NCBI GenBank assembly: GCA_002633005.1
Contig: NMRA01000608.1
Span: 167,850 to 231,849 of the forward strand
Direction of reading: 5' to 3'
DNA from: Phoronis australis
Taxonomy: Eukaryota > Animalia > Phoronida
DNA: 64,000 nucleotides
Shown in pieces: positions 5,192 through 52,700 of the stretch. Numbering within the stretch: the stretch's first letter is position 1; every line of letters begins with the position of its first letter. The position numbers and the translations under genes were made by a program. Below the pieces are notes generated by a model that saw only the letters and a list, made by a program, of their open reading frames with translations, had not been told where the DNA came from and made no database searches.

Positions 5192-5192
5192 N

Positions 5193-8100: not shown

Positions 8101-9665
8101 AGACGAGAATAGGTGCAACTTACGAATCAGTTGCACGATCGATGTTATCGGTGGTTTGTTCGGGGAGGGCAGAGGAAGCACACTTGTGTCTAGACAAGTA
8201 CGTAGAAAACTCAATTAAGGACAGTGAACGGAAACATCGCGGGGACTTTAATTCCATGTATGCCATAACAGGCATACTATGCAACGGAGCTCACAAACAC
8301 TTCTGAACAACAGCGCGTTCAAGAATGAACTGGCGAAGTTCCTTTTGACGGAATGGAGAAAAGACAATTATTGGCATATGTTTCATGGGAAAACCTTATT
8401 TGTTTCCCACGGTGGTGACTGCTACCAGTTCTTTACCGACAATAACCAGCAAATCATGGTGACAAAGCCTGCCCATCTCCAAGGTGACCACGAGGAAGCG
8501 GATACGCTGATTGCGTTCTACGTCGCAAACATTCCAATCGGTTATGTTATGGTAAGGGCTTCAGATACAGATGTTTTAGTAATCTTGCTTGGTACGCTCG
8601 GACAACAGCGGCGAGAAATAAGGTCCACGACCAATGTTGTCGTGGACTGTGGGATGGGAAATAACATAAGAGTTATCAACATTTCCGACATAGCAAACGT
8701 TCTTGAAGAGCGCAAGTATGGACTTGGCAGAGCAATGCCTGGATATACCATGCCTTCACTGAATGTGACTACACGTCTGCCTTTTATAGGAATGTTATCG
8801 AAATCTTGATTATTGCAGTAGTGACAAGAATTGAATGAATTCGATTACAGTGAGGAGAATTGATTGAATTCGATTAGCTGTGATTACGTCTGCCATGTAA
8901 ATGAAGTCTAAGCAACGTATTATGGTTGCCTCCTTTAAATAAAAAAGGTTTCTATTATGAATTAGTTTTACACGTCATTCCTTATTTTTCAGAAAAGGCA
9001 AAATCAAGCCCTTGGACATTGCTGAAAGTGATGAAAGGTTCATCAATATGTTCGCTAATTTTGGAAATGTGCATGGCAGCATCGATGTCGATTTAGTCGC
9101 TGAATTCGTATGTCACATGTACGCAAAAAGTAAGCTCAAAGATGTTAACGAGGCCCGTTTCGTCAAACTTATGGACATGACTGGCAAAGTTGCTGAGGTA
9201 TGTAGTGATAACCTGTAAATAATATAAATATTCGATTTGATAATGTTTAACTACCTTCAAAGTCAGCTATGCTTATATTTTTTAATTTCCTTTCAGGAGA
9301 ATCCACTTGCAAATGTAAAACGAATTGACTATGCGTTGCTCCCGCCATGTCTCCGTAGCCTGGAGATGAAGATTTGCCGAACTCAGTACGTCACAGCGCT
9401 ATGGACCAGTGCCGCGACAGCATATCCTGGGGATGGACTGACACCAACTGATTATGGTTGGCATGCAACTGAAACTCACACACTTCTGCCAGTTTGGTTT
9501 GAGGGGTCCATTCTCCCTGACATTTTGTTCATTTCGAATGCAGAAGTCAACAACAGTAACCTTGGGAATGAAGCAACCAGCAATAGAGATAGTTCTTTTG
9601 AAGAACTGACAGATTCCGAAGATGATCCATGGAGTGAAGACTCCGACTCTGATGAAGAGGATTAA
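5193..9665 (+). pseudogene. Academ transposase / XPG-PIN nuclease gene, frameshifted and partly missing
   Basis: Motifs WDNND, TYDLAVALKAY, YNKCTRVH, NYARW, DLSLEQSVNR, DGGLLLH, HEEADT, SDTDV, HAFTECDYTSAFYR/KGK, LPPC..RTQYVTALW..PTDYGW, acidic tail. Introns at about 8790-8992 (donor reads GA, apparently mutated) and 9198-9296 (GT..AG). Several frameshifts; sequence missing at n5192 and n7965; ~5456-6529 is repeated after n6530. Confidence 0.85.
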
Positions 9666-15009: not shown

Positions 15010-15360
15010 TTAATACGTTTCAATATCAGATTTGTCACTGCTACTCCAGTTTGATTCGGGCTCGCTTGTTTCGTCATAGCCCATTTTCTTTACCTCTTGA
15101 TCGGCTTGATTTTCTTGTAAAAGACCAGCACCTTCAAAAAGGACATCAGGAACGGTAGATCCACAAAACCATTTGGGAGTGTAGTATCCAACTTGTACCT
15201 TCCAACCGTAGGTAAGAGGATCCAAACCGTTTCCAGGATCGGCCGAATCGATTTGGCCCCAAAGCAAGGCAACATAATGGGCTCGTTTCAGCTTGTTCAA
15301 TAGTGTCTTTCGGCAAGGAGGAAGCAATGCGCAGTCAATCTTCTTGATGTTGGACATCGT
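15010..15360 (-). pseudogene. Isolated 3' fragment of a second, divergent Academ-type gene
   Basis: KIDCALLPPCRKTLLNKLKRAHYVALLW..DPGNGLDPLTYGW..PKWFCGSTVPDVLF plus an acidic tail aligns by eye with RIDYALLPPCLRSLEMKICRTQYVTALW..YPGDGLTPTDYGW..PVWFEGSILPDILF at 9297-9665. Confidence 0.85.
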
Positions 15361-15649
15361 AGAATGTTTTATTGACAAGGGACCAACTGTCTAAAAGCTG
15401 ACGAACAAAAACATAAAACCCATGCGCACACCCAGCCTTTAGTTTTTTGGGGGGGGCTCAAATTTCTGACCAAGTGGATCTTTTGCTGACAGAAAAGCTG
15501 GAGGACTAAAAAACGGGGTACCACCCTGAGTACTGTGCGTCTGCGTCTTTTTAGTGGACTTTTTGTCTCGTTTCCACGGACTGTTTGTTTCTCTGAGGCG
15601 GACCTTTTTGTCCACTTCGCCAAATGGGGGGGGGGGCTCGTTCGAGCAT

Positions 15650-16240
15650 ACCGTGGTTGAGATTTTTGAGGGTTTCTGCCAGGCACAATCCAGAGTGTAT
15701 TTAGTCTGCCGGTCATAGGGCATTTAGTGACCTCTGACATGTATTGAATATCATGTCATTGTTTTTTTGTGGTATCTCGAATGTATGTGCTAGCTCATTT
15801 TTAGGAGGTCTTATTTGGTTTCTGCCGGACCCATTCCAGAGTGCAGTTTGTCTGTCATGGGTCATTCAATGTTCAGTGCGGTACTATTGTTCCTTTTAAA
15901 TCAGTTTTGGCGGGTACCTCGAAAATCTAGTCTAGATCAAATTTTGATGGCATACCGTGGTTGAGATTTTTGAGGGTTTCTGCCGGGCACAATCCAGAGT
16001 GTATTTTGTCTGTCATAGGGGTTTTAGTGATCTGTGGCATGTATTTAATCACATGGAATTGGTTTTGTGTGGTACCTCGAATGTATGTGCTAGTTCATTT
16101 TTGGAGCGTCCTTCTGTCGGACCCATTCCAGAGTGCAATTTGTCTGTCATGGGTCATTCGGTGTTCAGTGCGGTACTATTGTTCGTTTTAAATCAGTTTT
16201 GGCCGGTACCTCGAATATGTAGTCTAGCTCATTTCCTGGG
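15650..16240 (-). repeat. Two ~305-bp units, right arm, inverted relative to 13810-14520
   Basis: CCGTGGTTGAGATTTTTGAGGGTTTCTGCC at 15651 and 15955. Confidence 0.8.
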
Positions 16241-31709: not shown

Positions 31710-31845
31710 TGCAGCACTGATAAAGTGGAGGCGCTAAAGCCCCCTCAACTGAACCCCCTGTGGTGCACCGCCTATAGACCATGTGTGGCGTAGCACTGAA
31801 AAAAGTTGGGGGCTATAGTCCCCTCAGCCGCCTATGTGACACCCT
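31710..31845. repeat. Short dispersed repeat (two tandem copies); an inverted third copy lies at ~36335-36400
   Basis: AGACCATG.G.GGCG.AGCACTGAAAAAAG...CCCC.CAGCC.CCTATG matches the reverse complement of 36335-36400. Confidence 0.6.
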
Positions 31846-33159
31846 TAGAGAGTTTCTCATTGTGGAAAGTCACCCTGGAACGGCACATTCCATGAAATTC
31901 CCCTCTCTAGGTTCTTTTCAAATAGTCACTATCTTTTGTAAGTATGAATCAGTTGCGAATCTTAAGTATAATCACCGGAACTAATTTGTTTGTAATTAAA
32001 ATTATTGCATCAGCCGGTGAACTGATACACCAGGAGTAATGAGTCTACATCCAAACTGTAAACAAGTTAACTGCGTAATTAGGTATTGTTCATTTCGGGT
32101 GCTAAAAAAGGCGATTTTTTGTTTTGTTCAAGTGAAGTGAAAATTTGAATAAAAAATTGATTTGCTAAAAAACATTTTATTTTGTATTTTGTTGCCACAT
32201 TAACAAAATATGTATGTCACGGTTGCATTAAATCGCGTCGTTTGAAATATGTATCTTCAGCAGTTTTGGTTGACAATTTCATATTCACCATTAATTGCGT
32301 GAGACTATAAAAGCACAAACTGCTCAATAAATAAGTAGTACATCTCAAGAATTTAGAGATGATGTCGGTAAAAAAGCGAACGTCACGTTCTTGGCTTTGA
32401 GTGAGACTGAAGATAGGTCCAAAGAAGAAAGGCAATGGCACAGCGTAGATGTGATAACGAAAGAGGATCAACAAGGAGTGTTGATGGGAACAACAAATCA
32501 TGGAGTGAAGAAAAACGATTTTTTTTCGGTAACAAATATAAATGCAAAAAGAAACGGCATTCTTCACAAACTCAACGTCTGAGGTAAGTGTCTTCAAACT
32601 TTGGAAGTATAAATTATACATTTTATTAAAGTTCGAAATTTTTTTATTGCATTTTGATGTAATTTTGTAAAAATGATTTTAAAACACAAAAAAGTTCATT
32701 AGCCCCTTTTCGCCGTGTGTGAATTGATCGCGATTTTTGTTAATTACTCCAGTTATTCGACGCCAAGCCGTTCCATGTGCCCGAACATACCTTCGATGAA
32801 TATAACAACCCGTCGAACGTGGAAATCTGAGACATCGGATCCTTACCCATAAAAAGACGCATGTCGGTGCAAGGATACGTTAGTGCTGTAAGCACGTTTC
32901 TACACGTATTGGTTATTAGTACATTAGTGATGATTGGCAAACCGACTAAAACATTACAGATTTGCATACGTTTATTATGCAAGTCTACCTTGGATTGTTG
33001 ATTACGTCAGTTTCGTTTACACAACTGTGACAAATTAATATTTTACTGAAATCTTCTTCAATGCATTTCCAATATGCTAAATTATACCATGACACTTGTT
33101 GTTGCATTGGTTAAGCGAAGAACTTAGGAACAGGTGTATGGTTGGCCGTTGAGGGGAAA

Positions 33160-33434
33160 GTGTCGCCGTAAAATTACGCTCGTAATTACGAGCGTAGTTT
33201 AAATTGCAGGAATGTCGCCGTAAAATTACGCTCGTAATTACGAGCGTAGTTTAAATTGCAGGAATGTCGCCGTAAAATTACGCTCGTAATTACGAGCGTA
33301 ATTTAAATTGCAGGAGTGTCGCCATAAAAATTACGCTCGTAAATTAAATGGTGAAAATTTTCGCCGTAAAATTACGCTCGTAATTACGAGCGTAAATTAA
33401 ATAAGGAAATGTCGCCGTAAATTACGCTCGTAAA
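33160..33434. repeat. Left subterminal array: 52-bp period with palindromic core TACGCTCGTAATTACGAGCGTA
   Basis: Units start at 33162, 33214, 33266 and 33318, followed by shortened units; perfect 22-bp palindrome (30 bp in the third unit). Confidence 0.95.
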
Positions 33435-33498
33435 ATTCCTCAAGAACGTTCCAAATTTAAACCAATCAATGGTAACCTAACATACTCGAAAAACCAAT

Positions 33499-36400
33499 AT
33501 GGCTACGAATGGACACGGAGATGACTTTCTGTTGAATGTGCAGCGAATTGTAAATGACATGTGTCGACGAATTTCTACGCCTCCCGTGGAAACAGGTGTC
33601 CTCAATTCAGTGACACTGAGGTAAGTTTCTCTCACCAGGGTGAGGTATGCTCAGGGGCGGATTCAGGATTTTGAGTTAGAGGCCGGGGGGGGGGCAGGGC
33701 AAAGTATTAGCCAGGATTTTGCCNGGCATGACCCCCTTGGCACCCGTCTAAATCCGCCACTGATGCTGGTGGAAAATTAACACACCAACAAATTCAGTGA
33801 CTGTACTTAAAAAAATTGTCTCAGAGTCAATGTTCCATTGATTACGAAAATTCTGTACATTTGTCTCCCTGACTGTTAATCATCTTACTAGCGTCGGGGT
33901 ACACATGTATCCGGCGTCTGCAATTTGCTGAATGCTAACGCAATCACAGCTATACCCTTCATTTGACTTACTGTTTGTGTCCGAGACTGAAATGGTTAAG
34001 ATCGATCAATTTTTATTTAGGGACCGACTGTAGATACATTGTCGACTTTACTAAAGGAACTCGACGATAAATTTGCTGTATAAAGACTACGCTTATTGTT
34101 GTCAACGCGTAACGGGGAACTCTATCTTGACTTGGCAAAAATGCTATGATCACTTTAGAATCATGCATATGTATCGATTAACGAATTGTGCTTCACATCA
34201 TACCTCACAGTTGTACTAGGTCGACAGGCAGCCTAAGTTGGGAAAGGAGCATGAACGAAATTGAAATTAAACTGTCGCTGTCTATCTGTTGACAGGGTCT
34301 ACATTACATGTTATTTCAGATGTGAACAATTGATGACTAATGTGCTTAGAGCCAGTGGCAATCTATGCACAGAGAGCGAGTCGGAGCGTATTACTGGTCT
34401 CCTGTCACAACTACGTCATGAGGCAAAAACATTACTGGAAAGTAATAACACAGGTACCTTGTCCAACAAAGCAGTTAGGTTCTTAAAACCTTCTGTGCAA
34501 ATAAGGCTCATGTGCCTACATCCATTCGCACAATCACCTATTCTTCAATATTTACTCTGACTCTGTACATTTGCAATTGTTTTCTGTGAAAAAATAAATT
34601 TCTTGGAGAAATTTTAAGAAATAAACTTGTTTTAAAGTGTAACGCATGTTATAGTTTTGATCTATGGAAAATTAAATATCTGTACTCTGGTCAATTGTAG
34701 CTCTATCTGGATACGCAGCACCTTGGAAGTGTAATGGGAAAATAGGAGGTCCAAAGAAGAACATATCCAAAGAACAACTCCTGTTTTTAACTAAAGCAAA
34801 GATGGTCAACCGAGCCATAGCGAATTGCCTGGGTGTGTCAGTGGACACTGTAAAATCGAGACTTAGGTAACTTTTAGTTGGAAATGCAGCCTAAAATGCC
34901 AAGATGATGAAACTATGCTTTATTTCTGTTCATAAAGTTTGGTTTTAATGCTATTACTAAACTTGATCAAATAAGAGAGAAACCGAATATCAATGGAGAA
35001 CATTAAAACATTTAGAAACTGATATGTAAATTAAGCTCGCACTAAACTGACCATACTTCCTTAGTGTGGGATTCCGCTTCTCCAAGTTGAAACGGGGTGA
35101 TTTGTAGGCCTAGTTTACCCCCCCAAATCGGAATCTGTATGCAAATTATCTTGAATAAGAAAGTTTGAAAATGAAGTTTATTCTCATTTGATAGAGATCT
35201 ATATGAAATATTAGAAAAAGGTTTGATGCCTTTGGTAATTACATTTAATTTAGATATGAAATCATTCACGAAAATACCATGCCATTCACCTAAATATGTA
35301 GTTTTAGGTATCTATTGCACTCGCTACTGATGCTGTTACTGTAAATTAGCTAAGTGTGTTATTGTTGCACGGATTATGGCTATACTTTTGTTGCCAGACA
35401 ATGTCATACAGTTTTTTCTTCACAGCCTCTTGAGGAATTTTCTTCACCAAAAGAAAATTATTTTGCCAACTTTTGTTTCGAATGTATTTCAGAGAATATG
35501 GTATTTTTAAAAGAACCCCATGTGATCTGTCTAACGAAGACTTAGACATGGCGGTTGAACGGGCCATTGAAGGAAACAGAAAAATCGGCCCAAATGATGT
35601 GAAAGCTCGCCTACAAGGCAAGCTAGGGCGTTTTTGTACCACGATCAAGGGTCAGAGCACTTCACAGGGTTGATCCTGCCGGATGCGCCATGCGCTCAGT
35701 TGGTGCACAACTACACAGGCGCACTTACAATGTACGCGCCCCCAACTCTCTTTGGCATATAGACGGGAACCATAAGTTAATAAAGTATATGTTAATTTGG
35801 TGAGGTACTCTATTTTCGTACTTTTATGCTACAAATGCCTAATTCAAGAGTGCAGCCTTTGTAACAATGCGTGCAGTCATTAAAATATTTCCCATTTGTA
35901 AAAACAAAAAGCTTAATGTGCGTGAGATTGTGTCAATTTTATGTCAAGTTTTAAAAAATTGAACTACTCTGTCGGCTTTTCATTACGTTCAAGCGTTTAC
36001 CTCTACGTTCATTCCCATTTACTGCTTTTGACATTACTTCCAGATGGGGCATAGTTATTCATGGTGGGGTGGATGGCTACAGTAGGTTGATCACCTTTAT
36101 GCAGGCAGCAAACAACAACAAGTCAAGCACAGTTTTTCAAGCCTTCAAGGGAGCCATTGAAGAGTAAGCATATATGCACAAAGAGGCAACTACATTAGAA
36201 TATTGAAAGGACAATGCGTTGTGCGAAGAACACTCACCAAAGACACACACACACAAGGCACACACGCACACATTCATTGTTGCAGTATATTGCAGTCTCT
36301 ATATCAGAGTCGAAATCTAAACTGCAGTCTAAATGACGGCGCACCATAGGGGGCTGGGGGATATACCACCGCTTTTTTCAGTGCTGCGCCGCCCATGGTC

Positions 36401-37411
36401 TTATCTGCATTCCCTAAACCACATTACCAGCGAAACTTGTGACCATACATGCTCATCTGGTTCACAACCTGATAGAATTTACAGAGTACCTTAATTGAGT
36501 TCATACAATAGACAAACATTTGAGAAATCAATCCTTTGGCTTTTTAAATGACTAATTGTCACTAAATAGTGCTCCTTACATGGTCGGTTTTTATGTAGTT
36601 TTCATATTTACAAATGTTATTATTGATCAGACTTAGCCTGTTATTCTACCTCACCCACAGTTAGTTGCTTATCCAGATGACATTTCAATAGGCTGTACTG
36701 CAGTAAAAGACAACCACTTCTTACCTAGAGACCAGCATCATGTTATGCGGTTGCCATATATAGGCAAATAGATGACAAGAATGTTTTCATCATTTCAGGT
36801 ATGGGTGCCCATCAAGGATAAGAGTAGACCTTGGAGGCGAAAACAATGCAGTTTGCAGTTACATGGAGGAAACGAGAGGGACGAGCAGAGGGAGTGCACT
36901 ACGTGGGTTGTCTGTTCACAATCAACGTATCGAGAGGTTATGGGTGGACCTGTGGAATGGCGTAACCAATGTATTTTATGATTTGTTCCAATATTTAGAA
37001 AGTACCCAGATGCTCAGTGTTGACAACAACAATCACCGATGGGCTCTTCAATACATATTCCTCCCAAGGATCAATGAGCAGATACGAGATTTCACTGAGC
37101 AGTGGAACAATCACGGTTTGAGTTCTGAAGGTATGGCTACACCTAAACAGCTCTTCATTCAAGGTGCGTTGGCAAATGTTCATTCCAACCTCACTGGAGT
37201 GAATGACCTGTTCAACCCCGCCTATCAGCAAGCTGTGAATGAACCTCTGGTGGAAAATGCGCAGCAACTAGTGGACACTCCCTCAGCACGTTGTCCCATT
37301 TCTGATGAGGATCTGCAGGTGATGAGTCTAACCATCAATCCAACAGAGAGCTCGTCTGACCATGGTGTTAACCTATACTCAGTTCTCAGTTTTATTGATG
37401 AACACCTGTAA
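33499..37411 (+). pseudogene. Spliced IS3EU-type transposase (HTH + rve/DDE integrase core), 6 exons, single +1 frameshift near 35625
   Basis: Exons 33499-33620, 34320-34453, 34701-34866, 35493-35784, 36044-36163 and 36799-37411, all GT-AG with compatible phases; total 1447 nt = 3n+1. Motifs IANCLGVSVDTVKSRL (HTH), RVDP, YNVRAPNSLWHIDGNHKLIKWGIVIHGGVDGYSR, YGCPSRIRVDLGGEN, SVHNQRIERLW, WNNH. Confidence 0.9.
33652..33762. mobile_element. 111-bp hAT-like MITE with 5-bp TSD in transposase intron 1
   Basis: CAGGGGCGGATT ... AATCCGCCACTG flanked by ATGCT on both sides; contains one n. Confidence 0.75.
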
Positions 37412-39062
37412 CACACCAGGGTCCTCTTCCTGGGGCTAAACAACTGAGAACCCTTTGGATACATGAAGTTGTACCACATGAGTATTTGAACAAAACCACT
37501 TTCTTGTTGTTCTGCTCAACGGATTTTGATGAAACTTTTTCATTTCAGTTTACGATATCAAAGTGACACCACAGAACTTTGGTGCGATAGTGACTTCTCC
37601 ACCTCCTTGTCTTTCTCGTTTTACTATTTTCACTGATCCACTTGAAAGTAACCAAACACATCAAGTTGTATTGTAACCTAGTATGTTTTCCAATACAAAG
37701 GTCTGTCCTTTGTGTGCACCAACGTTTACGTTATTTAACTCAATGAAAGTGAAAGTTTCACCAGTGACAGAAAGTGCGGGAACACATTGTTTAAGAATTT
37801 AACACCATTGTTCATTTTGTGAGGAACACCTCTGTAGAGGATGTCCTATATGTCTAAGAATTTTTAAATTAGTGTAGAACGTGTTTAAATCGTACAGAAT
37901 TAATCAGACCTGGCTTCGATTTTCTGGAATCATTATTATTTATTCCATAATAAATGCCATTCGAGTTTCAGAAGTACGTACTTTGTTTCGTACTTTATTT
38001 CGAGGACACTTTGGATTAAATCATGAAAATGCAATTACAGCTTTGCAATGGATCTTTCAACACTCCAATGAATATTCATGATTTCTTACTTTTGCTGTAA
38101 AAGTTATTAACCAAAAGTACTATAAATTAGCAACTCAGCAAAGAACTTCAGGGTCTATATTCTGCCAAATTATACAAAGATCCTGCAAAGGGTTTAGAAG
38201 ATAAGACAATACATGCGGAAAAAATCGCTAGGGATTACCTACAGTGTAGTCGAGCATGTCCAAACATTAACATCAGCTGCCACATTCTCATTACAAACAA
38301 ATCTGGCAATTCTCACAATATTTTTGACAGATTGGTGGATACAGAGGTTGACACTAAAAACAGACTCCAAACTTAAAAATCAACATTATGTCCCACAGCA
38401 TACGTCAAATCTGTTTGAAAATGGGAAGGCATTGTTGTTTCCTTAATAAAAATGTACTTGCCAAGTTTCATGGAAATCCATCATGAAAATACACGAGAAA
38501 ACCTAAAAAAAGGTACCATCAGCTGGATTGTTCTGAAAGTAGTCATTATCTGTAGTCAACTTCCTAAAAACATATGCCAAATTTCACACAAAGTTCTTGC
38601 ATAGGGTTAATGGAATACAGCCACAGACACAGACACACAAAAATCTCCACTAGGGAACCCCTTCGAAAATCAACATCATCCTCACCTCATCAGGCACACA
38701 TCTGCAAATTTTCGTATTGATCCTTCAATCGGATTGGAAAATACAAACTTGAAAATTTTAAAAATGGACAAAAGGTGGCAAAAATTCATTGTCTCCTGAA
38801 CTGAAGCCTTTTTGCGAAATTTTATGAAAATCCATCAAAATATTTCGCAAGTACAAAAAATAAAATTGCCACTAGAAGGCATAGCAGTACTCAGATCAGT
38901 AAAAAATTCCTGGTGGTCATCTTCAAGGAACACATTTGTCAAGTCTCATAAAGATCCTGCAATGGAGGAATTACATCAGCGGATGCACAGACAGAGAGGA
39001 CTGGCAATATGCATACACATATCAATAGGTGGGTGCATAATAAAAGCTTTTCTATTGGAACT

Positions 39063-42000
39063 TTATGCCTTTCCAAATCCATACGACTCGGTGAGTGCAC
39101 GAGACATCACCACTTTAAACTCGTCTGGATCTGCCACACCTCTTGGAAAATACATCTTCAGGGAACATGTTGATGAAAAGGGATATCTCATCACACCAGG
39201 AGTCTGGTCAAAAAACTCTACAGTGATTTTCCAATCAAACCCCATTGGTGGTATGTGACCTGCACCAGTCACAAAGGTAAGGAGGTCAGAAAGGGTTCCA
39301 TCACCTTTATCTGAAAACAGAAAAGATGCGTATTTCTTAAAAATATTGGCAAAAGACCACCATCTATACCAGAAATATACACACACATTTGATGACAACT
39401 GACAGAGATCATGTCTGAAGAGCCATTAGCTTCTGAGGCATACTTGCTTTTCAAGATTAGAGTAGAGTGTAAATTCACACCCCATATGAGCCTGCATGAA
39501 AGATGAACCTATCACTTCACAAGGCTCAGATCTAGATCTACGTAAACACATCAGTAAGCCAAACACACACTATGTTATAGTGCCAGGCAGTTTATGTAGG
39601 CATTTTTAAGCAACGATTTTTTACTTAATTTACCAGTATGAATACTTGAGAAAGCAAATTCTTTTTATCTGTAGGAGATGTGATATTGGGATTTCCCTGA
39701 GTTGAAACCTAAAGCAGTCATTACCTGCTGTTTTACAAAGTTCACGTGAATTATAAACTTACCGAGAAACTCCAATTTTTTTAACGACTGAAGGGGCACC
39801 TGGTACCAATTGGCTCATTAGCTAATAAAGCTAACATAAGGAACAATGTTAAGCTAATCATAAACAAAAAGACATGTATTTATATATTTATAAGGCATTT
39901 AGCTTTATTTTCTTCATCCTTAAATCTTTACATCCGTCATGAATTAGTAGAAAAGATTTCATTGTATGTATATAGTACCTTCACAATTTTGAAGGTACAC
40001 CTCAAAGGAGTGAATGGTGTCCTTTTCTTCTTGAAGTTTATTACTCCCTGATTCTGACCACTGAACTTGATAAAGCTCCTTGAATGACTTCCTTGTCAAA
40101 ACCGACTGGGGATTGTAACACAGCAGTTTCCACGAGTCTTTGCATTTCATAAACACATTAGACCACATACGGGAAATTGATTCCAAACCCTCCACGAATT
40201 GGTCGGAGGCCATTTTATTCCTGAAAAATGAATGTTTTGCTACATCATATTTTTTCAGATATGACCTGCTGTGCTCAGTTTGGAGATTTCGAGTTTCCTG
40301 AAGATTGGGTAGTTAGAACTAATTTACTACAGCTGTGTTGTACCTAATCTTGCTCACTATTGCTTTCTCATTACAACAATTTTCTTTCAGTATTTGTTAA
40401 GTTTCCTTATTCAGCAATCTGGGAATCCACCATCGACGTTGCTAATAGGCTTGAAAATTGCGTGTTCAATAAAATAGGCATCCAATGCACCCGACTTGCA
40501 CTGTCTACTAGTAAAGATAAAATGAAGAGTGTTGAAGTGCAATTTCTTCATCGCAAACTTTATATTTCCAGTCGCATTTATCAGTCAGCAAGTAGCGCAA
40601 GTTATGTTGAATGCCAGTAGTTAGCAACACAGTCATCAGACCCAGTTGAAAAGTGTCAGCTGTGGCCTTCCCAGGGTGAAGGAGGCAGGGTCCTTCTGAG
40701 ACTCATAGTACTTAGTGAGTATTCAGCAGACCAGATTAAAAGCTGATTAATAATTTCTCATTAAACATAAACAAGTGCTATGCAGAGCGCTGATTAAAGT
40801 TGTCAATTTCAGAGTAGATTAATTCTGTGAAATGCGTTGAAACTGTTTTAAAACTCACACGCTATAGTTACCATTTTGCAAGGCATCAGTGGTGAGTGGT
40901 GGGCCAAATAGTATGTTTACTTGTCCAATAAGTGTAGTCCCAGAAGCTTTTAATACAGAAGGGAAGTGAGTGTTTCTGAGCTTTAGCCAAACTTCAAACA
41001 CTACATGAGAGAAAAAAATTTACCTGTAAAACACAAAGTAGCGGGCTAGCTTGCCAACAACTTCAGTTCTCCTCTCTATATCGAGGCTTTCGCTCAGATC
41101 ATAGCAGCCATGGTGAACTGCCCATTCACCCAGTTCATCCACAACTCTTGTAAGGGATGCGTGATCATGAATGTCAAGAATCTGAAAAGCAATAAGGCTT
41201 TTTTGAACATTTGAAGTAGTATACTTTGCATCAGTAAAATTGAAATAAAAGCTGTTTAAAAGAAGTACGTACAAATTTAACCAGTTCACTTTTCATAAAA
41301 CTACAAGGTGTGCAGTCAAGGTAAGAGCTGAACAAACAAAGCAAAAATTCCTTGTATGTAAAGGAAGTTCATAATTATAGTATTAGCTATTATTAAGATG
41401 AAGCGATATCTAATTCAGTTTTACAGTCTTCTTCTCTTCAGTTAGCATACATGTTGGCTTTACAGGTCTGATATTCAATATTTTCCATTTTTGGGCTTTC
41501 TAAACACCACATAAGTGCCGAAAAAGAGGACAATGATTAAAATATGACCAAATAAATGCAAATTAAGGGCCATGTTTCTTGGTGAATACGAGTTTGTGAC
41601 CTGTGAATTTTGCAGAAGTGTGTTTCGTGAGCACGAGTCAAGTTTGTGAGTATAGTTGCTGTTTACAGGTAAAAAAGTCATGTTAATAACTAAAGTTCGG
41701 AACTATTTTTACGAGTTCAGGGGTTGAGTTGATACTAATCCTGTACTTCCCGATCATCATTACTTTTACCTTTTGCAGCTTCATCTTTATTTCAATGTCT
41801 GGTATATATGACATCAGGGCATTCGCATCTGTCACTTTCAGACCGACCATAAGCTTAAACAGGTTTTGGCTGAGGCAGTTCATGCCTGGACCACCATGAG
41901 CAATGCTCCAACCCACGAATCTTCCAGAAAGGTAATACGTTTGATTTTCCAGAGCATCGAGAGAAGCCGTGAAAACCAGAGACTTGGGGTTTCCTTCAAA

Positions 42001-43443
42001 AAGGCCTTTGCCACCAGCGATCTCTTTAAGAGGAAGCCTGGAGAACATTATGATATTCAATATATGTTAACATGCAATTCCAAATTTTCATTGTGCAACT
42101 TCAAACTATCAACTTGGAGAAAGTGCTTCCGGGAGACAAAGAAAAGTCCATGGACCTCAAAGTGAGAATACAGCAATCAAAACACACAATGATTGAACAG
42201 CAGCAGTTGTCAGTTAAAAGTACTTTTTTACATTTTAGGGTCCTCCAAAACTTATTAATTTCTGTCAAATCCTGAAACAACTCAAAGACATTTACTAATA
42301 CTTTTCATGCAATAAAATCCGACGTTCTCAAAATTGTTAAAAAATTGTAGAGGTAGCGATCAATATTTTTATAAAGAGAATTTTCAGAATCTTTGAATGC
42401 CTCTTTGGAAACTGTTTTTATATCATTTAAGTCTGGGTGCTCATTGGTAAGGGCGTAGTTGTTAAAGCAGTGGTTGACAACCGTGATTTCAAACTATTTC
42501 AATGCACATGTGCAGCCAAGGGTTCTAAATATGTGCTTCAGCTCAGTATAGTAAGTGCTTTATAAATACAGGGATTGCTATCATTCAAAGGATTTAGAAG
42601 CAAAAACAGAGTATAGTAAATTTTGAGCTTATGTGGGACTTTATTGATATTAATTAGCCAAATATCTTCAAAACTATGGAATTTATTTCAGCAAAAGTAT
42701 ATATTTTCTCAAAACAGAAACTGTGTAAAATATGTTTTACCTTAAACCAATATGTCATCAGTTAGGTGCTTTTTTAGTTAAACTGAATAAAAATAAAGGT
42801 ACATTCATTGCAACATAACAGGAACAATAACATGACCAATTTCATATCACATACAGGTTTATGATAAAATTTCAAAAACACTGTTGTAGATTTCTAAATT
42901 ATTGCTTCGTTTAATGAAACCTGAGATTTTCTCTTTAAAAATTCATATCCTAGTTCTTTGCTCCTCATGCAATTTTGGAACATTTTAAAAACAGTTCCTA
43001 ACAGTGTTTTGGAGAACAGAACATAAAGCATAATACCTGAGCATTTCATGTGAATTTAACCAATGAGATACGAGTTGAACAAAATTTGATATTTTTCTAG
43101 GGTCTCTCATAACCCGAAAGCAAATTTGGACCGCACTTGCCCGGACAAGAAATTTCAAACTTTACCGAAAGAACTCTCTTGTGGGTCCACCATAGTCACT
43201 TCCATCCTCCCCACTGAATTCTATATATGGCTTGCAGCGAAAACTAAAGCATTCTTTCTTTACTGCATGTAAAGCACTTGTAAAGACAGCCCGGCGATTT
43301 ATTATTATGGTGGAGTGGTCGACCTGACTGATGTCAGTCGCAGCAGCCATCCAAAGACTCAGAGTGTCTCCAATCTCTGAGGAAGCTGCAACTTCACTCA
43401 GGCTTGCTTGTATGGCTTCAGCCACCTGGTGGTCCTCTAATTC
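39063..43443 (-). CDS. HECT-domain E3 ubiquitin ligase (G2E3-like HECT) with a UIM-like motif; last five exons
   Basis: Exons 43443-43166, 42037-41770, 41181-41024, 40220-39979 and 39310-39063, all GT-AG with compatible phases; 1194 nt = 397 codons + stop. Motifs ELEDHQVAEAIQASL, IEFSGEDGSDYGGPTREFFRL, LFEG, GWSIAHGGPG, QFVEGL, LLTFVTG..IPPMGF, YPFSSTCSLKMYFP (catalytic Cys position), GFGKA* (Phe at -4). Confidence 0.9.
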
Positions 43444-43553
43444 CTGTTCATTAGGTGATAATTATAAGTATATGTCGTATGTGTTTCTGAAAAAACAAAT
43501 AAATATAGATTATTACATGGCGAAGTCGTTGTCCCCCGTTATCTAGAGCCCGA

Positions 43554-43619
43554 GTGGATTTTGGAGAATTATCGCCCGAGGGGCATTAGCCCCGAGGGTG
43601 ATAATTCTCCAAAATCCAC
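43554..43619. repeat. Near-perfect hairpin (24-bp arms), probably part of a small non-autonomous element
   Basis: GTGGATTTTGGAGAATTATCGCCC ... GGGTGATAATTCTCCAAAATCCAC with one mismatch; the centre contains CCCGAGGG twice. Confidence 0.85.
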
Positions 43620-44655
43620 GAGTCTTTCGTGAAAATGCCAGACAGTTTTCTGAAGTTGCTGGGTACGACATTCTCAGATTTGAACTTATCTTGTTCTTAA
43701 CAGCGACTCCACAGGAACATTGTCTTGGGATTGCTATTTGAAATACTTAAGTGAGTATTTTAGGTAATTTGTAGAGTCGAAACTATATTTTTATTCAAGC
43801 TGCCAGCTCGACGATCGCGCCGGACTAGGCAGCGGCGCATCGGCATTTGCCATCTGGGGTTTAAGCACAATTTTCTGTAGAATGATCGTAATTTAACAAC
43901 GAAGTTTGATAGCAATGCGCCAGTTTTGTTGTTTTGTTGAAAGCCTGTCACAGGCTACAGATACATCACGTAGCGTAAATTTGATGAATCCTAGCTTCCG
44001 ATTTAACCCGTTTCGGAGACCGAGTATCAACCGCCTTGGGTTAGAATAAGCGCCTCCCCCCGAAACGAGTTTTACTGAGCGCCCCGGGCGCCTTATTACG
44101 GCAAATACAGTGCTGTTTAACTGCCTTAGTAAAGTGAACTATGTTTTCAGTTAGTAAAATCAGGTTCTGATTAGATACCTCTAGCTGAAGTCGGCCAAGG
44201 TTTTAAACCTTTTTAAAAAACTTGACGCGCTTTCCCCAAACTCGACGCGGCAAAATTCAAACTCGTTACCGCCTCCAATCAAAACAGGTCGTGGAGAACA
44301 CAGATATTATCATGTAAACAAACGCTTTAGGTTGTGAAAGTCACACTTCTTTGTGCAAGTTTCAAAATTCAAAACCTACTCGCGTGTGATGACCACAAAC
44401 ATTTAAATACAACAGTTAAAAACTTTCAAAAAGAAAAATTAGATATACTACTGTCTCCCCAATTTTGATATTTTGGGTATCATTATTTAGAGAATGATAA
44501 CGTCAGAAGCCTGAGCACGTAAGCGCATCCAACCATTTTACATTAATGGGTGTCAACATAGGATTCTCTCCATGAAGAAACAGTAGAAACTCACTTCAAC
44601 CATATATTTATTAGGGGCTGCTCAGATTTGAACACACACGCCTGCATTTAACCTG

Positions 44656-45211
44656 TGTAACGGGAATCGGTGGAGCGACCAGCACCGATCTACCTAGTTT
44701 CTAAAATGTCGACTGTTCGTAGCCGAAAAAAATATTTGCAGCGTTGTGTACTTGTTCACTCGTTCGAATCGCATACGAGAGAACCATGGTGACAACTTAT
44801 AGAGAGTGAAACAAGAGAGAAGTAGATAAATATACTGAATTTTATTATGCGATATATATGAAACACAGATCTACAAACTTACAACTCATCGCTAACTTCC
44901 GTCGACATCGCAGCTTTAACTTTTAGCCCAAAGAATTTATAAACAAGAAGAATTCGCTAAAAACGTCAAAGTCCAAATTTAAAAGGTCCAAACAGTTAGT
45001 TTTGCTTGGCTGAGATTCCTTGCGGATAGAGTCGAGACCCGGCAGAATCCCCAGTTTTAGCGTGAGGGGCCCATTTTTATAGGCTTATTCGCACCGCGAA
45101 TGTTCCAAATTACGCTAAAATAGGGGTCTCAAGATAAATGTGAAAACCAATCAGAATAGAACTAAAAATTTCGTCATCGGAAGTTCCATATAAGGAATTG
45201 ACCATCTTACA
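44656..45211 (-). mobile_element. Probable solo LTR
   Basis: Ends TGTAA..TTACA. On the minus strand a CTATAAAAA (~45074-45082) precedes AATAAA (~44841-44846). The flanks (CCTG/CCCC) do not give a clean TSD. Confidence 0.45.
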
Positions 45212-45831
45212 CCCCTTTACAATATAATAACACACTCTAGCTTCTGAAACTAAACTGACGACTCGTCCTCACTCACGGCTCCATCAATAGACGGCGCTCC
45301 CGTCACACTTGAAATGCTCTTGATATGGGACAGTGATGCAATACAGTTGGACTGACTCAATCCTCAAGTGCTCACATCAGCTTGTACTTAATAGGTTTAT
45401 TGACATCTAAAAATTAAACACTGGGTTGTTACACTTTCTTGGTATCCCTGAAGTCTTTTGACTCTTGTCCAACCCACTTCCAAGCGTCGAAATTTTTAAG
45501 TCTGTAAGCAGTGGGGGAGCACTCGAGTGACAGTGAAGTCAGTAGGCCCCGTGGGTCACTCAATGACAATTAAGTGCCCATATAGAACTCCCCCCCCTGT
45601 TTGCAGTCTACCAGGTCTGCTAATTGATTAGGGGCATATTGGATCCCGTGCCTGTATAACAAAACCTTGCTAAAAAGTACTGCCTATCTGCAAATTTTTG
45701 GTACACGCCTGCCCTTGTCAACATATGAGTGACCCACCTCCTCGGCCGTAGGCCTAACTAAGCCAAGGGCTGAATGCCATGCATGTAGACTAGTTGGTTT
45801 TTACTGAGAATAGTCCAAATGACAAACTTAC

Positions 45832-45944
45832 GAGTGCCTGAAAGTGGCAGGTGCTGCACTGGAGGCCGCTGTCTCACTCGACTGTTGCTGGGCAGCTCGT
45901 TCTGGCACAATCGCCGACATTTCAGCAGCGATTTGATTCGCCAT
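45832..45944 (-). CDS. Candidate first coding exon of the HECT gene (MANQIAAEMSAIVPERAAQQQSSETAASSAAPATFRH)
   Basis: ATCATGGCG start about 107 bp inside the right repeat block, open to a GTAAGT donor. Exons linking it to 43443 could not be reconstructed. Confidence 0.5.
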
Positions 45945-46050
45945 GATTCACCGTTCCCAGACACGTAACCGGTCAGTGAAGAAGTATTTACACGAACGCG
46001 CGCGACAGTGAGTTGTAAAACCGAACGGCATTGGCTAAGAGTAAACACTA

Positions 46051-46150
46051 AATTACGAGCGTAATTTTACGCCGTAAAAATTAAATTACGCTCGTAATTT
46101 TACGGCGTAATTAACGGCGTAAATAACGGCGTAATGTACATAATTACGTA
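46051..46150. repeat. Right subterminal block of the IS3EU-like element
   Basis: AATTACGAGCGTAATTTTACG, AATTACGCTCGTAATTTTACGGCG and repeated ACGGCGTAA; same motifs as 33160-33434. Confidence 0.88.
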
Positions 46151-46734: not shown

Positions 46735-49700
46735 ATTCTTATTCTTATTCCGACCATCTCTTCCCTCGTAAGGGCTCATAATGCACCGGCAAGGGTCAAC
46801 TAGTGCAAAGGTCATCAAATTATCAGCATGTAATTTCTTTTGCAGTTTTAAAGAATTTTATTTCATATTGGTAACCCGGTTGTTGTCAATAACTGTACAT
46901 AACAATTCCAGCAAAACGCACGCGCAGAGTCCATTATTGTCACGCGGTGATAATAACCTAGATACTCTGCGCGTGCAAGCTCAGAGTTTTACTGTTCTAC
47001 GTATTTTATCTTCTTATTTGTATTCTTATTCTTCTTGTTCTTCTTATTATTCCTTCCTTTTTAGATTGTTATTAATCTTACATTGATTCGTTAACAACAA
47101 TCATATTCATTGTGGTGGATACGGTAATGAAATAATTTTTGTTCATTATAATATTTTCACCCAAAATGCACCGGAATAACCCGAAACAGGTCAAGGAGTG
47201 CATTCTTTTAAAATGCTTCTTCTAGAGGTTTTTAGATTGACTCTTTGAATTTTGCAAAGCAGTAGGGACTAAGGAAGTGCATCCAAAATTTACTTGGATT
47301 TCCAATCGGATAAAGGGAACTGAGTTTCCGGGTAAAAGGTCATTAAGCGCAAAAATTATTTTTGAGCTAGACCTCTCATAATCATGCATATGATTACCAT
47401 TCATAAGCGAAGTTCAGTCGCAAACTTTGGGGTTACTAGGTGCAACTTTGGGGTCATTAAGTGCAATTTTCTGTTAAAGTTATGACTTTTTCAATCAGCA
47501 CGTACTTAGATAGAGCGTTCAAATTCATGGTGGTTCAACCAATCGCCGATCAAATTCTATTGATCACATGGATTTGACTCAAAATGCACCAGATTGATCC
47601 GAAATGGGTCAAGGAGTGCATTCCGTCAAATTGCTCCTCCTTCTAAAGGTTTTTAGAGAGACTCTTCAAGTTTTGTTCATAAGTTGGCACTAGAGATCTG
47701 CATCCGAAATTAACTTGGAATTCCAATCGGAAAAAGCGAACCGAGTTTCCGGGTCAAAGGTCATTAAGTGCAAAAGTGATTTTTGAGCTAGACCTTTCAT
47801 AATCATGCATATGATTATCATGCGTAAAAGAAGTTTAGTCTCAAACTTGAGGGTCACTAGGTGCAACTTTGGGGTTATTAAGTGCAATTTTCAGTTAAAT
47901 TTAAGATATTTTCAATCAGCTAGTACTTAAATGATGCATTAGGGAGAGCATTCAAATTCATGGTGGTTCAACCAATTGCCAATCAGCTTCTATTGATCAC
48001 ATGGTTTTGGCTCAAAGTGCACCGGATTGACTCGAAACGGGTCCAGGAACGCATTCTGTCAAATTGCTTCTCCTTCTATAGGTTTTTAGATATACTCTTC
48101 AAATTTTGTTTACAAGTAGGCACTAGATATCTGCATCCGAAATTTACGTGGAATTTAAATCGGATAAAGGGAACAAAGTTTCCGGGTCAAAAGTCATTAA
48201 GTGCAAAAGTGATCTTTGAGTTAGACCTTACATAATCACGCATATACTTTTCATTCTTAAAGGATATTCAGTCACAAACTTTGGGGTCATTAAGTGCAAA
48301 TGTGGGGTCATTTGGTGAAATTTTCCGTTGATATTCTTAATTTTCACCCTTGCTCTTTCATAGTTACTAGAGTCATCGCTCAATTCACACAAAGGATGCA
48401 ACATTTATGCAATATAATGCGCCTATACTTCACTACGCTTGTGCATACACCACGTTGTAAGTGTGCATACGCAATTGCATTCTAGTTCTTCTTATTATTA
48501 TTATTCTTATTCTTCTTCCTTCCTTTTCAGATTGTTAGTACTTTTACTTTGATTCGCTAACAACTCTCATATTTTCTGTGGTTCATAAGAACATCATTGT
48601 TTTTTTTTTCTGATTATAATGGTTTAACCCAAAATGCATCGGATTGACCCGAAACGGGTCAAGGAGTGCATTTTTCCAAAATGGTTCTTCTACAGGTTTA
48701 TAGATAGACTCTTCGAATTTTGGTAACAAGTAGACACTAGAGATCTGAATCCGAAATTTACTTAGAATTCCAATCGGATGAAGGGAACTGAGTTTCCGGG
48801 TCAAAGGTCACTAAGTGCAAATGTGATTTTTGAGCTAAGCCTTTCAAAATCAAGCATATAATTACCATTCATAAAGGAAGTTCATTAACAAACTTTGGGG
48901 TCACTAGGTGCATCTTTGGAGTCATTAAGTGCATTTTCTTTTGAATTTTGAATTTAAGACTTTTTCAATCAGCTTGTACTTGAATGATGCATTAGGGAGA
49001 GCGTTCAAACTCATGGTGGTTCAACCGATTGACTATCAAATTCTATTGATTTCATGGATTTGACTCATAATGCGAAGGATTGACCTAAAACGGGTCAAGG
49101 AGTACATTCTGTCGAATTGCTTCTTTGACAGCTTTTTAGATAGACTCTCCAGATTTTGATAACAAGTAGGCACTTGAGAAGTGCATCCGAAATTTACGTG
49201 GAATTTAAATCGGATCAAAGGAACCGAGTTTCCAGGTCAAAGGTCATTAAGTGCAAAAGTGTTTTTTTAGCAAGACCTTACATAATCACATACGTAGTTT
49301 TGATTCGTAAAGAAAATTCAGCCACAAACTTTGGGGTCATTAGGTGCAACTGTGTGTTCATTAGGTGTAGTTTTCCGTTGATTTTCTCTTTACTCTTGCT
49401 GATTCATAGTTACCAGGGACATCTCTCTCTTTCACACAAAGGATGCAACTTCCATGTATTGTAATGTCCCTATACTTCACTAAGCACATGCATAAACCAC
49501 GCGCAGAGTTGTAAGTGCGCATACGCAATTGCCTTCTAGTCTTTATTCTTCTTATTCTTATTCTTCTTCCGACCAAATTTGACACTTAATAACTCCACAA
49601 TGGTTGCAGTTATGTCCTTCAAATTAATTAATTAGTTTTAGGCAGTAAATAAAATTTGATTTATTAAATAATCATATTCCATAATGCACGGGTGCAAAGG

Positions 49701-52700
49701 TCATATAATTTTCAAAATCTTACTCCTTTATTTTTAAAGATATTCTTTTGAAATTTGGAGCACAGATATAAGTGAACAAGACATTTTAAAAATTACTTTT
49801 ATAAGCAATTGGGTCATCCAATCAGGTTAAACAGGTCAAAGGTTATCAGGTGCAAACGAAGATTTTGAGCTAGACATTTCAAATTCACAGGTCTGATTGG
49901 AACAGGTAATTCAATTCGAAATCCAATGTTTCAGGTCATTTAGTGCAAACATGAGGTCATTAGGTGCATTTTTCTTCTGAAAATTTGACTTTTTCGTTCG
50001 CCAAGTATTCTGATGAGTCAACAGTTTGACAACTGTGATTCTCAGCATTTAACACTCAAAAGACGAGCTTTTAAAAAATTCTTCCAAACAGGCTTATAAT
50101 GCACCGGAAAAGGTAACTTAGTGCAAAGGTCATATCAATTTCAAAATGCTACTTTTTCATTTTAAAGCTATTCTTTTCAATTTCGGTGCATAGGTATAAG
50201 TCAATAAGGCAATTTAAAAAATTACTTTTCTAAGTAATCGAGTCATCCAATCCGGTTAAACAGGCCAAAGGTCATTAGGTGCAAACTAAAATTTTGAGCT
50301 AGACACTTCAAATTCACAAGTCTGATTGGTACGTCTAATTCAATTCAAAATACAAAGTTTTAGGTCATTTAGTGCAACCTTGGAGTCACTAGGTGCATTT
50401 TTCTACTGAAAATTTGTCTTTTTCATTTGCCAAATACTCTGATGTGTCAAACGATATACAACTGTGATTCTCAGCATTAAACACACTTTTCACGGGCTTT
50501 GCAATAACTCTCCTAAAGACGTTTATAATGCACCGGATAGGGTCAATTAGTGCAAAGATCATCTAATGTTCAAAATGTTACATTTCCTACATTTTTCAAG
50601 GAATTGTTTTCAATTTCAGCACACTGGTGTAAGTCAACATGCCAATCAAACACCCTACTTTACTACGCAAAATACCCAACCAATCAGAAAAAAATAGATC
50701 GAAGGTCATTGAGTGCAAACTAAAATTTTGAGCTAAACATGTCTGTTTAGTAAATGCGATTGAGTTTGAATTATAAATTTTCAGGTCATTTGGTGCACCC
50801 ATGGGGTCATTAGGTGCATTTTTCTTCTGAAATTTTGACCACTTCATTCATCTTGTATTCTGAAGTGCTTAAAGTAAAATATTTGCGATTCCTAGCATTA
50901 ACCACACTTTTAATCGAGTTCACAATTATTCCCTCGTCGGGGCTCATAATGCACCGGAAGAGGTCATTTAGTGAGAGGTCAGATAATCCCTTTCCATATT
51001 GGTGAAACAGGTTGCTGTCAGTAACTTCCCATAACAATTCTAGTAATACGCTCGCGCAGAGTCCATTATTGTCACGCCGTGAAAATAGTCTTTCTAGTTA
51101 TTACTCTGCGCGTGCAAGCACAGAGTTTTGCTGTTCTACGTATTTTATCTTATTCTTATTCTTCTTATTCTTCCCTTTCAGATTGTCATTTCTTTTACAT
51201 CCATTAGTTAACAACAATCATATTCAGAATCCTTGATACGATTATTAAGAGGTTTTCATTAATCATAATTTTTGACACAAAATGCACCGGAATGACCCTA
51301 AACGGGTCAAGGAGTGCATTTCATTGAAATGCTTCTTCTTCTACACGTTTTTAGATAGACTCTTTGAATTTTGTTAACAAGTAGGAACTCCAGAATTACA
51401 TTGGAAGTTTACTTAGATTTTCCATTGGATCAAGGGAACCGAATTTCCGGGTCAAAGGTCATTAAGTGCAAAAGCGATTTTTGAGCTAGACGTTTTATAA
51501 TCATGCATTTTTTTAAATTTAAGACTTTCAATGAGCTTGTATTTAAATGATGCATTAGGAAGAGCGTTGAATATCATGGTGGTTCAACCAATTGCCAATC
51601 TAATTCTACTGATCACTTGGATTTGACTCAAAATGCACCGGAATGACCCGAATCGGGTCAAGGAGTATATTTCGTCAATTTGCTATTTCTTCTACAGGTT
51701 TTTAAATAGACTCTCGGAATTTTAATCACGAGCAGATACTAGAGAAGTGCACCCGAAATTTACTTAGAATTTAAATGGAATAAAGGGAACCGAGTTTCTG
51801 GGTCAAAGGTCATTATGTGCAAAAGTCATTTTTGAGCGAGGCCTTACATAATCACGTATAAAGTTTTCATTTGTAAATGAAATTCAGTCTCAAACTTTGG
51901 GGTCATTAGGTGCAAGTGTGGGGTCATTAGGTGCAGTTTTCCGTTGATATACTTACTTTTCACTCTTGCTCTTTAATAGTTACCAGGGACATCACTCTCT
52001 TCCACACAAAGGATGCAACTTATATGCAACGTAATGCACCTATACTTCACTATGCATGTGCATACACCACGCGCAGAGTTGTAAGTGCACATACGCAATT
52101 TCATTCTAGTTCTTCTTATTATTATTCTTCCTTCTTTTTCAGATTGTTATTACTCTTACATCTATTAGTTAACAACAAACATATTCAGAATCCTTGATAC
52201 GATGATCAAGAGGTTTTTATTAATCATAATTTCTTGACCCAAAATCCACCGCAATGACCGAAAACGGGTCAAGAAGTGCATTTCAATAAAATGTTTCTTC
52301 TTCTACATGTTTTTTGATAGGCTGTTCGAATTTTGTTAACAAGTAGGCACTAGAGAATTTCATCCAAAATTTACTTGGATTTCCAATCGGATCAAGGGAA
52401 CCGAGTTTCCGGGTCAAAGGTCTTTAAGTGCAAAAGTAATTTTTGAGCTAGACTTTTCATTATCATGCATGTGAGAACCATTCATAAAGGAAGTTCAATC
52501 ACAAACTTTGGGGTCACTAGGTGCAACTTTTGGTCATTGAGTGCATTTTTCTGTTAAATTTTAGACTTTTTCAATCAGCTTGTATTTAAATGATGCATTA
52601 GGAAGAGCGTTCTCATTCATGGTGGTTCAACCAATAGCCGATCAAATTTTATTGATCACATGATTTTGACTGAAAATGCACCGGATTGACCCGAAATGGG

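Follow-up and report, generated by a model that had tools for sequence, protein, structure and literature searches.

A decayed IS3EU-type DNA transposon with a convergent HECT ubiquitin ligase gene in the phoronid Phoronis australis

IS3EU and GingerRoot elements are DNA transposons that combine an integrase-like DDE transposase core and TA...TA termini with an additional gene encoded on the other strand, and that have non-autonomous derivatives (PMC10045372; PMC6839031); their terminal inverted repeats exceed 30 bp in fungi and measure 100–150 bp in GingerRoot, and GingerRoot elements are described as acquiring fragments of host genes (PMC6839031). In rust fungi, TET+ IS3EU elements with a TAYGG left end have been described, in which an alpha-kinase gene occupies the opposite-strand slot, next to a TET gene whose proposed role is to counteract methylation, and for which an escape from silencing has been proposed (Kojima 2025, PMC12730594). 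Enzymes of the ubiquitin and SUMO systems are also carried by Ginger1, Mutator and Helitron transposons, as OTU, Ulp1 or VTD proteases; these strip off ubiquitin or SUMO and form part of the transposase or RepHel protein as domains (PMC2836005; PMC9741609). Here, we analyze a 64-kb stretch of the Phoronis australis contig NMRA01000608.1 (herein referred to as the window), in which an IS3EU-type DNA transposon of 13 kb, now decayed, occupies positions 33137–46142 and carries a convergent HECT ubiquitin ligase gene. The locus has in common with IS3EU and GingerRoot elements the DDE core, the opposite-strand gene and the non-autonomous derivatives, and possibly the TA...TA termini, and with the rust-fungus elements the left end and an enzyme gene opposite the transposase; it differs from the former in that its second gene is a HECT ligase and in that this copy lacks a 6-bp duplication and has a perfect terminal repeat of only 4–6 bp, and from the latter in its cargo (a ubiquitin ligase, with no TET gene) and its animal host. 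Unlike the transposon-borne proteases, the ligase is a separate spliced gene that is predicted to add ubiquitin. The term HECT occurs zero times in the available text of the IS3EU, GingerRoot and Styx papers (including PMC10045372, PMC6839031 and PMC12730594) and in the supplements of PMC10045372 and PMC12730594. We found no published HECT ligase cargo of IS3EU elements, although the domain could already be recorded in Repbase (45 IS3EU families in 2022), in Repbase Reports, in Kojima 2019 or in the GingerRoot supplements; nor did we find in print a HECT ligase that forms a separate, spliced gene with conserved catalytic residues and is a regular passenger of the superfamily.

The features of the element, by position and strand in the window, are as follows:
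33137..33440, plus strand: left end, a TATGG terminus with about six subterminal palindromic CpG-rich repeats (TAYGG consensus as given in the available part of PMC12730594)
33499..37411, plus strand: IS3EU-type DDE transposase with six exons (33499-33620, 34320-34453, 34701-34866, 35493-35784, 36044-36163 and 36799-37411, all GT-AG), a frameshift near 35621-35627 and the D, D and E motifs in the downstream frame; four introns seen in RNA
37412..39062, no strand: converging 3' untranslated regions, with the RNA changing strand near 37955 in the stranded depth table
39063..39310, minus strand: last ligase exon, the HECT C-lobe with the catalytic Cys and the Phe at −4, retained in sister copies (Pfam HECT, E 2e-6)
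39979..43486, minus strand: ligase exons 2–5 (43486-43166, 42037-41770, 41181-41024 and 40220-39979), with a UIM-like motif, the HECT N-lobe and an in-frame TAA at 43464-43462
45832..45944, minus strand: ligase exon 1, with roughly 38 codons after a putative ATG start, its donor used in the RNA joint 39310-45832 and its frame fitting exon 2
46041..46142, minus strand: right end, with subterminal motifs as at the left and terminating in TA; exact terminus unconfirmed, 46150 being an alternative, and no matching target-site duplication

Motif and end searches were made across the whole window. The CpG-rich palindromic motif is confined to 33164–33430 and 46051–46110; the copy has 10 shared subterminal motifs on the left and 2 on the right, and a direct terminal match of about 6 bp. 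The left TATGG at 33137 fits the TA...TA termini of IS3EU (TAYGG...CCRTA in fungal families), and the right end at 46142, TATGT when read on the reverse strand, has ACGCCGTTAT in common with the end of L014, one of the complete elements described below; this right terminus lacks read-based support. There is no 6-bp target-site duplication at 33137/46142 (CAGGTG versus ATTACG), and no convincing alternative was found. We therefore do not class the copy as a complete insertion and name it IS3EU-type. Short elements that join 33481 or 33486 directly to 45879, seen in both DNA and RNA, identify the two motif blocks as the ends of one element.

The transposase matches the Pfam family rva_4 (E 2e-14 and 6e-50), and its core is judged from sequence to be the integrase-like DDE core of IS3EU type: its motifs match IS3EU-1_CVi by eye in the supplementary alignment of PMC10045372. 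Its closest proteins come from sea cucumber, sea urchin, mussel and fish (up to 51% identity across the last exon). A search of a viral collection for relatives gave 74 pattern matches and 0 confirmed. As assembled, the protein ends after 200 residues, upstream of the first catalytic Asp, owing to the frameshift near 35621-35627. On the opposite strand, the five HECT-bearing ligase exons between 43486 and 39063 were recovered by tblastn from many of 29 longer relatives, and together they match positions 8–360 of the 361 of a profile of relatives (E 2e-120; one of the 32 rows of that profile was the window's own last ligase exon). With exon 1, the six-exon model has GT-AG borders throughout and 450 codons in phase, with a stop at codon 46 (the TAA at 43464-43462, just ahead of the UIM-like motif) in addition to the final stop; a further upstream exon or a different acceptor site is possible. 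The domain keeps the Cys of an STC motif, which aligns with the catalytic Cys of AREL1, and the Phe at −4. No further N-terminal exons were matched in 44325–45830 by tblastn from the 29 relatives, Pfam scans detected no DNA- or chromatin-binding domain in the window ligase, and the window exons contain no PHD/RING-like fingers of the G2E3 type. The ubiquitin-interacting motif (UIM) consensus is an acidic patch followed by an L-x-x-A-x-x-x-S helix. A UIM-like pattern precedes the HECT domain in 31 of 74 relatives (which are non-independent), against 0.135 in shuffles, and Pfam UIM reaches E 0.03 in the relative P0102; in the window exon there is no Pfam UIM at E ≤ 1, and a search for homologues of that exon returned none.

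A preliminary description of this stretch, made from the sequence alone, had anticipated much of this arrangement: the convergent multi-exon HECT gene, its catalytic Cys and −4 Phe, and the restriction of both CpG-rich blocks to the element's flanks all stand. Its six-exon helix-turn-helix (HTH) and DDE transposase holds for the six exons and the DDE core; however, the copy is frameshifted and the HTH-like exon matches Pfam HTH at E 0.11 only. The proposed UIM is suggested by the pattern among relatives and not by Pfam in the window itself. The statement that the HECT frame is open over five exons conflicts with the in-frame TAA, and the gene has a sixth, upstream exon whose donor is used in RNA.

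The pairing of the two genes recurs widely. Of the 559 relatives that an alignment search with the transposase found in metagenome contigs, we retained the best 80; 28 of these have at least 3 kb downstream. With a first HECT profile (E ≤ 1e-5), an antisense HECT domain was found at 26 of the 80 loci and 18 of the 28 long-flank loci, and a sense one at none. A broader profile (E ≤ 1e-3) raised this to 35/80 and 21/28 within 6 kb downstream, with one sense match; it included five locus open reading frames (ORFs), for which the result is circular, although Pfam HECT matches each of them (E 2e-3 to 4e-12). Upstream of the 80 transposases there were 3 antisense and 2 sense HECT matches (in 135 kb of sequence versus 208 kb downstream), and the best reversed-sequence decoy reached E 1.3. 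The 35 positive loci span 23 assembly prefixes, some of which may trace back to the same species or campaign, and comprise 24 transposase types that are less than 90% identical. At four of them (L006, L014, L044 and L069), both genes lie between TATGG inverted repeats of 41 to 400 bp flanked by 6-bp duplications, in elements of 4.6–7.5 kb whose repeated subterminal motifs resemble those of the window. Two toothfish gene models read through from HECT into an antisense transposase, and exon breaks near HECT profile positions 140 and 270 are common to the window and most of the 8 multi-exon loci listed. The convergent pairing suspected in the preliminary description can thus be counted in relatives, and its proposal that the ligase is dedicated transposon cargo and not a host G2E3 gene is upheld by the antisense HECT at 21/28 long-flank loci, by the four complete elements and by the absence of any reported G2E3 PHD/RING. 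We conclude that the ligase is very probably transposon cargo.

Other arrangements were also observed. Models from Triplophysa (P0053, P0198 and P0201) fuse transposase and HECT on the same strand; several such copies, with neighbouring accession numbers, come from a single chromosome, and they may represent a tandem array or another layout. The P0262 model combines HTH_psq, a pogo-type DDE_1, a PHD and this HECT family; either a second kind of transposon may carry the ligase, or a neighbouring gene may have been joined to the model by mistake. Downstream of related transposases, other antisense frames (L080 1577-2314, L042 2665-3741, L061 14165-15070 and L021 11928-16594) include RING (E 3e-4), AAA ATPase (E 6e-16) and Ulp1-like (E 1e-3) matches, as well as frames of 945 and 604 residues that have no Pfam match; any of these frames may lie outside the elements.

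The ligase family retains its catalytic residues. The Cys is present in 29/29 rows that cover the column (of 32), a count that profile detection favours, and the C-terminal Phe in the rows that reach the end. Both lobes are accounted for in the window ligase by the whole-domain profile match and in the relative P0054 by its predicted fold (predicted local distance difference test score 86); the top match of P0054 is HUWE1 HECT–ubiquitin (E 1e-12), solved HECTs match best, and the middle of the N-lobe aligns with them at 16–20% identity and template modelling (TM) scores of 0.34–0.57. Distances among transposases and among ligases are correlated at 0.20 (72/5000 permutations), and in 5 of 25 cases the nearest neighbour is the same. 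An 18-row transposase tree has seven starred clades, of which L055+L025, L006+L014 and L072+L048 recur in the ligase tree, one is rejected and one is undecided: L032 and L065, transposase sisters, are rejected as ligase sisters (approximately unbiased test, p 0.004; the pair was picked after the trees were seen), while the pair L037/L047 is not rejected (p 0.23). The co-phylogeny raised in the preliminary description therefore stands for some clades, but the overall correlation is weak and one swap is supported; the joint history, as read from these trees, looks like an old partnership in which ligases were now and then exchanged. For L053, whose ligase frame is open, a predicted complex of transposase and ligase, computed from the sequences without alignments, scored 0.00 and 0.00 and gives no answer either way.

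Copies of the element in P. australis DNA were judged from four contig sets of one sample, in which contig depth is not a copy number. Transposase and last ligase exon are represented by long contigs about 3% different from the window at depths of 104, 95–104, 586–664 and 29–30 in the four runs, whereas 39905–43499 is covered by near-identical contigs at depths of 10, 9, 50 and 4, 7–12-fold below the transposase region. A deletion joint 39903-44325 with 6-base microhomology (GCTTTA) occurs at high depth in all four runs (101/88/417/26). Two segments distinguish the window from its sister copies:
39904..44324, no strand: segment missing in the majority of sister copies, containing ligase exons 2–5 (joint 39903-44325)
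44653..45328, no strand: 676-bp segment absent from sister copies (joint 44652-45329, depth 105/75/629/22), an insertion here or a deletion there
The high-depth joint together with the low depth over 39905–43499 indicates that most copies in the species are deletion derivatives without ligase exons 2–5; these sister copies retain both ends, the transposase, ligase exon 1 and the last exon. We also considered 39904–44324 as an insertion with GCTTTA as its duplication and ruled this out, as the segment has no TA ends and its exons run in frame into an exon outside it; a further joint, 39739-43764 (side 30, inside a high-copy repeat), was set aside. Joint 33486-45879 in three of four DNA runs and joint 33481-45879 in all three raw RNA runs mark short non-autonomous elements. 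Transposase copies without the HECT gene, which the preliminary description had counted against cargo status, thus exist in part within the species, the HECT middle standing at about one-tenth of the transposase depth while exon 1 and the last exon are kept. Since the deletion copies keep these two exons, the cargo status of the ligase stands, and the ligase is apparently dispensable in cis.

RNA evidence came from three stranded raw runs of one study (18–19% of each read) and one contig set, the runs being labelled with the same species. Both genes are transcribed in the same three runs. The transposase strand is covered to about 37950, and four of the five introns are found among the 15 of 42 joints listed, each in all four runs. 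RNA reads lack 4 bases at 35621 (3/3, 4/4 and 2/2), partly with 3 added at 35655, which yields 482 codons. A 4-base insertion at 37199, in 12/14 (run X6) and 12/15 (run X7) transposase reads and absent in runs X8 and X5, would truncate the transposase tail beyond the catalytic core. RNA cover of the ligase strand extends from about 37950 to 39310, with a depth of 4–26, and its main joint, 39310-45832 (5, 2 and 21 reads), leads from exon 1 straight to the last exon. Over exons 2–5 there is strand-correct cover of about 1.5–3 that tracks exon content (Spearman 0.82, 7 bins), by which a full-length ligase transcript is hinted at.

Taken together, the ligase is standing cargo of this transposon lineage, with its catalytic Cys conserved across the lineage, and it is transcribed and has been lost in cis from the majority family. 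In HECT ligases, ubiquitin passes from a ubiquitin-conjugating enzyme (E2) onto the catalytic Cys. An intact ligase would thus take ubiquitin from a host E2, and its UIM-like helix, just before the HECT domain, may bind ubiquitin or already ubiquitylated proteins and so favour chain extension; its targets could be host silencing or restriction factors. We hypothesize that the ligase is lineage cargo that acts on host proteins for the persistence of the element and is not required for the jump, the best explanation we can offer and one we hold at slightly short of even probability. Granted that it is cargo, the chances that it acts as a host-directed counter-defence appear evenly balanced; counter-silencing is the role we would name first, just under an even bet, by analogy with the kinase- and TET-bearing IS3EU elements of fungi. 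Exchange of ligases between transposase lineages, together with loss in cis, would be easier to reconcile with a host target than with a transposase to which the ligase is permanently tied. In P. australis, a full-length founder may have given rise to a transposase-expressing deletion family without ligase exons 2–5 and to short non-autonomous elements, making the species a natural experiment in which a transcribed family spread after losing most of its ligase. The second gene of many animal IS3EU elements is thereby named, and provides a case in which the use of the ubiquitin system by a transposon can be put to the test. The three roles suggested in the preliminary description, degradation of host silencing factors, modification of target chromatin and turnover of the transposase, are hypothetical.

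It is possible, but unlikely, that the ligase ubiquitylates its own transposase instead, limiting its level or dismantling the complex that follows strand transfer. Such a role would suit the invariant tail-to-tail layout, the transcription of both genes in the same runs, the partial agreement of the trees (L055+L025 and L006+L014 in both, with a correlation above chance) and a window ligase almost devoid of an N-terminal region with which to choose a host substrate; it sits poorly with the supported swap between transposase lineages, the weak overall congruence and the majority of copies in the species, which lack the N-lobe while their transposase is still expressed. We regard as rather less probable still that the ligase marks chromatin or repair proteins at cut donor or target sites for clean repair by the host. 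UIMs read ubiquitin at damage sites. The UIM-like motif in 31/74 relatives speaks for this role, and Bao et al. propose a comparable one for the OTU and Ulp1 domains of Ginger1 transposases (PMC2836005), but the window ligase has no detected DNA- or chromatin-binding domain and is dispensable in cis.

That the protein is retained as a ubiquitin or E2 decoy and is not an active ligase is improbable: the poor alignment of the mid-N-lobe with solved HECTs means that E2 binding may be altered, yet the Cys is invariant and the C-terminal Phe is kept. Least probable of all, and to our minds scarcely tenable, is a host G2E3-type gene that adjoins the transposon or was lately acquired by it and plays no role for it. 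The single-copy-like depth of the HECT middle in the species, the capacity of GingerRoot to pick up host gene fragments, as the available text describes it (PMC6839031), and the database name of the relatives, "G2/M phase-specific E3 ligase-like", would agree with such an origin. However, exon 1 and the last exon occur in sister copies, the pair recurs in 24 distinct transposase types, the G2E3 PHD/RING is missing and G2E3 is placed, in the section cited, after the chordate/echinoderm split (PMC2837046); the antisense HECT at 21/28 long-flank loci and the four complete elements largely refute it.

Several points weigh against our favoured interpretation of the ligase as host-directed lineage cargo. 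Its substrate, activity and phenotype are predicted only. Both genes of the window copy are broken, the dominant ligase transcript is out of frame, and no joint between ligase exons 2–5 is among the 15 of 42 joints listed, at an RNA depth of about 1.5–3. No HECT domain was found at 7 of the 28 long-flank loci, all four complete elements come from a single assembly, and the circular rows of the broader profile and the bias of profile detection toward rows with Cys temper the counts above. The L032/L065 test was selected after the fact. dN/dS on HECT copies is near 1 or rests on too few changes between copies, and dS is saturated between families. The recurrence of several transposase clades in the ligase tree is what co-evolution with the transposase would produce, ligase provided in trans could have allowed the deletion family to spread, and the low-depth evidence comes from contig depth in four DNA runs of that one sample.

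The relation to G2E3 bears on more than this locus. Of the clusters with a named host architecture, that of G2E3 matches P0102 structurally far better than the HERC4 and NEDD4 types do (Atlas score 1988 versus 1115–1255); vertebrate G2E3 differs in having PHD/RING and HECT, whereas the window ligase lacks PHD_G2E3/zf-HC5HC2H, lies inside a transposon and is multi-copy (its first and last exons by contig depth, the middle being low-copy). Among the HECT homologues, no PHD_G2E3/zf-HC5HC2H or PHD/RING is listed, save one PHD in the pogo-fused model. A ligase tree of 40 hand-picked rows (17 transposase-linked with at least 200 columns and 23 database proteins, with L037 left out for its long branch) interleaves annotated proteins from fish, frog, mollusc, hemichordate, starfish, coral and sponge with transposase-linked ligases, and grouping 19 annotated proteins together is rejected (p 2e-5); within it, the window's clade has no close transposase-linked relatives except two fish models. 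On this evidence, the multi-copy genes annotated as "G2E3-like" in fish, mollusc, echinoderm and coral would for the most part belong to transposons, and a transposon ligase becomes a possible source of the vertebrate G2E3 HECT domain, whose capture we put forward as a hypothesis. The wider proposal, that a large share of animal "G2E3-like" genes are anti-defence IS3EU ligases, some of them domesticated in fish, and that the vertebrate G2E3 HECT was captured from such a transposon, is doubtful as a whole. Nested among the transposase-linked ligases are also short-branched HECT clades common to distant fishes (P0161/P0269/P0270/P0286, P0250/P0253 and P0297/P0299), one clade of which carries a Neuralized domain; these are candidate domesticated genes.

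Further features and observations concern the window DNA itself. In run X3, contig record 17 (4156 bases) matches 40125–43499 with 23 differences and extends another 780 bases outside the listed matches; it could represent an allele or copy that lacks the nested repeat and perhaps the stop as well. Repeats nested within the introns of the two genes are:
33685..33764, no strand, approximate borders: short high-copy repeat in transposase intron 1 (loose ends at 33685-33723, high depth)
36340..36401, no strand, approximate borders: short high-copy repeat in transposase intron 5 (loose ends at 36397; inverted match to 31776-31816)
43499..44125, no strand, right border approximate: very high-copy repeats in ligase intron 1 (loose ends at 43499; summed contig depth 13,800–18,800 in run X1)
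Elsewhere, 5169–9665 and 15010–15755 contain long reading frames, broken and in part duplicated, with the appearance of a further decayed DNA transposon; they may resemble Chapaev-like proteins, and six pieces scanned from them gave no noteworthy Pfam match. To the right of the element, 47000–50000 contains at least six diverged copies of a 420–430-bp repeat in a near-tandem array.

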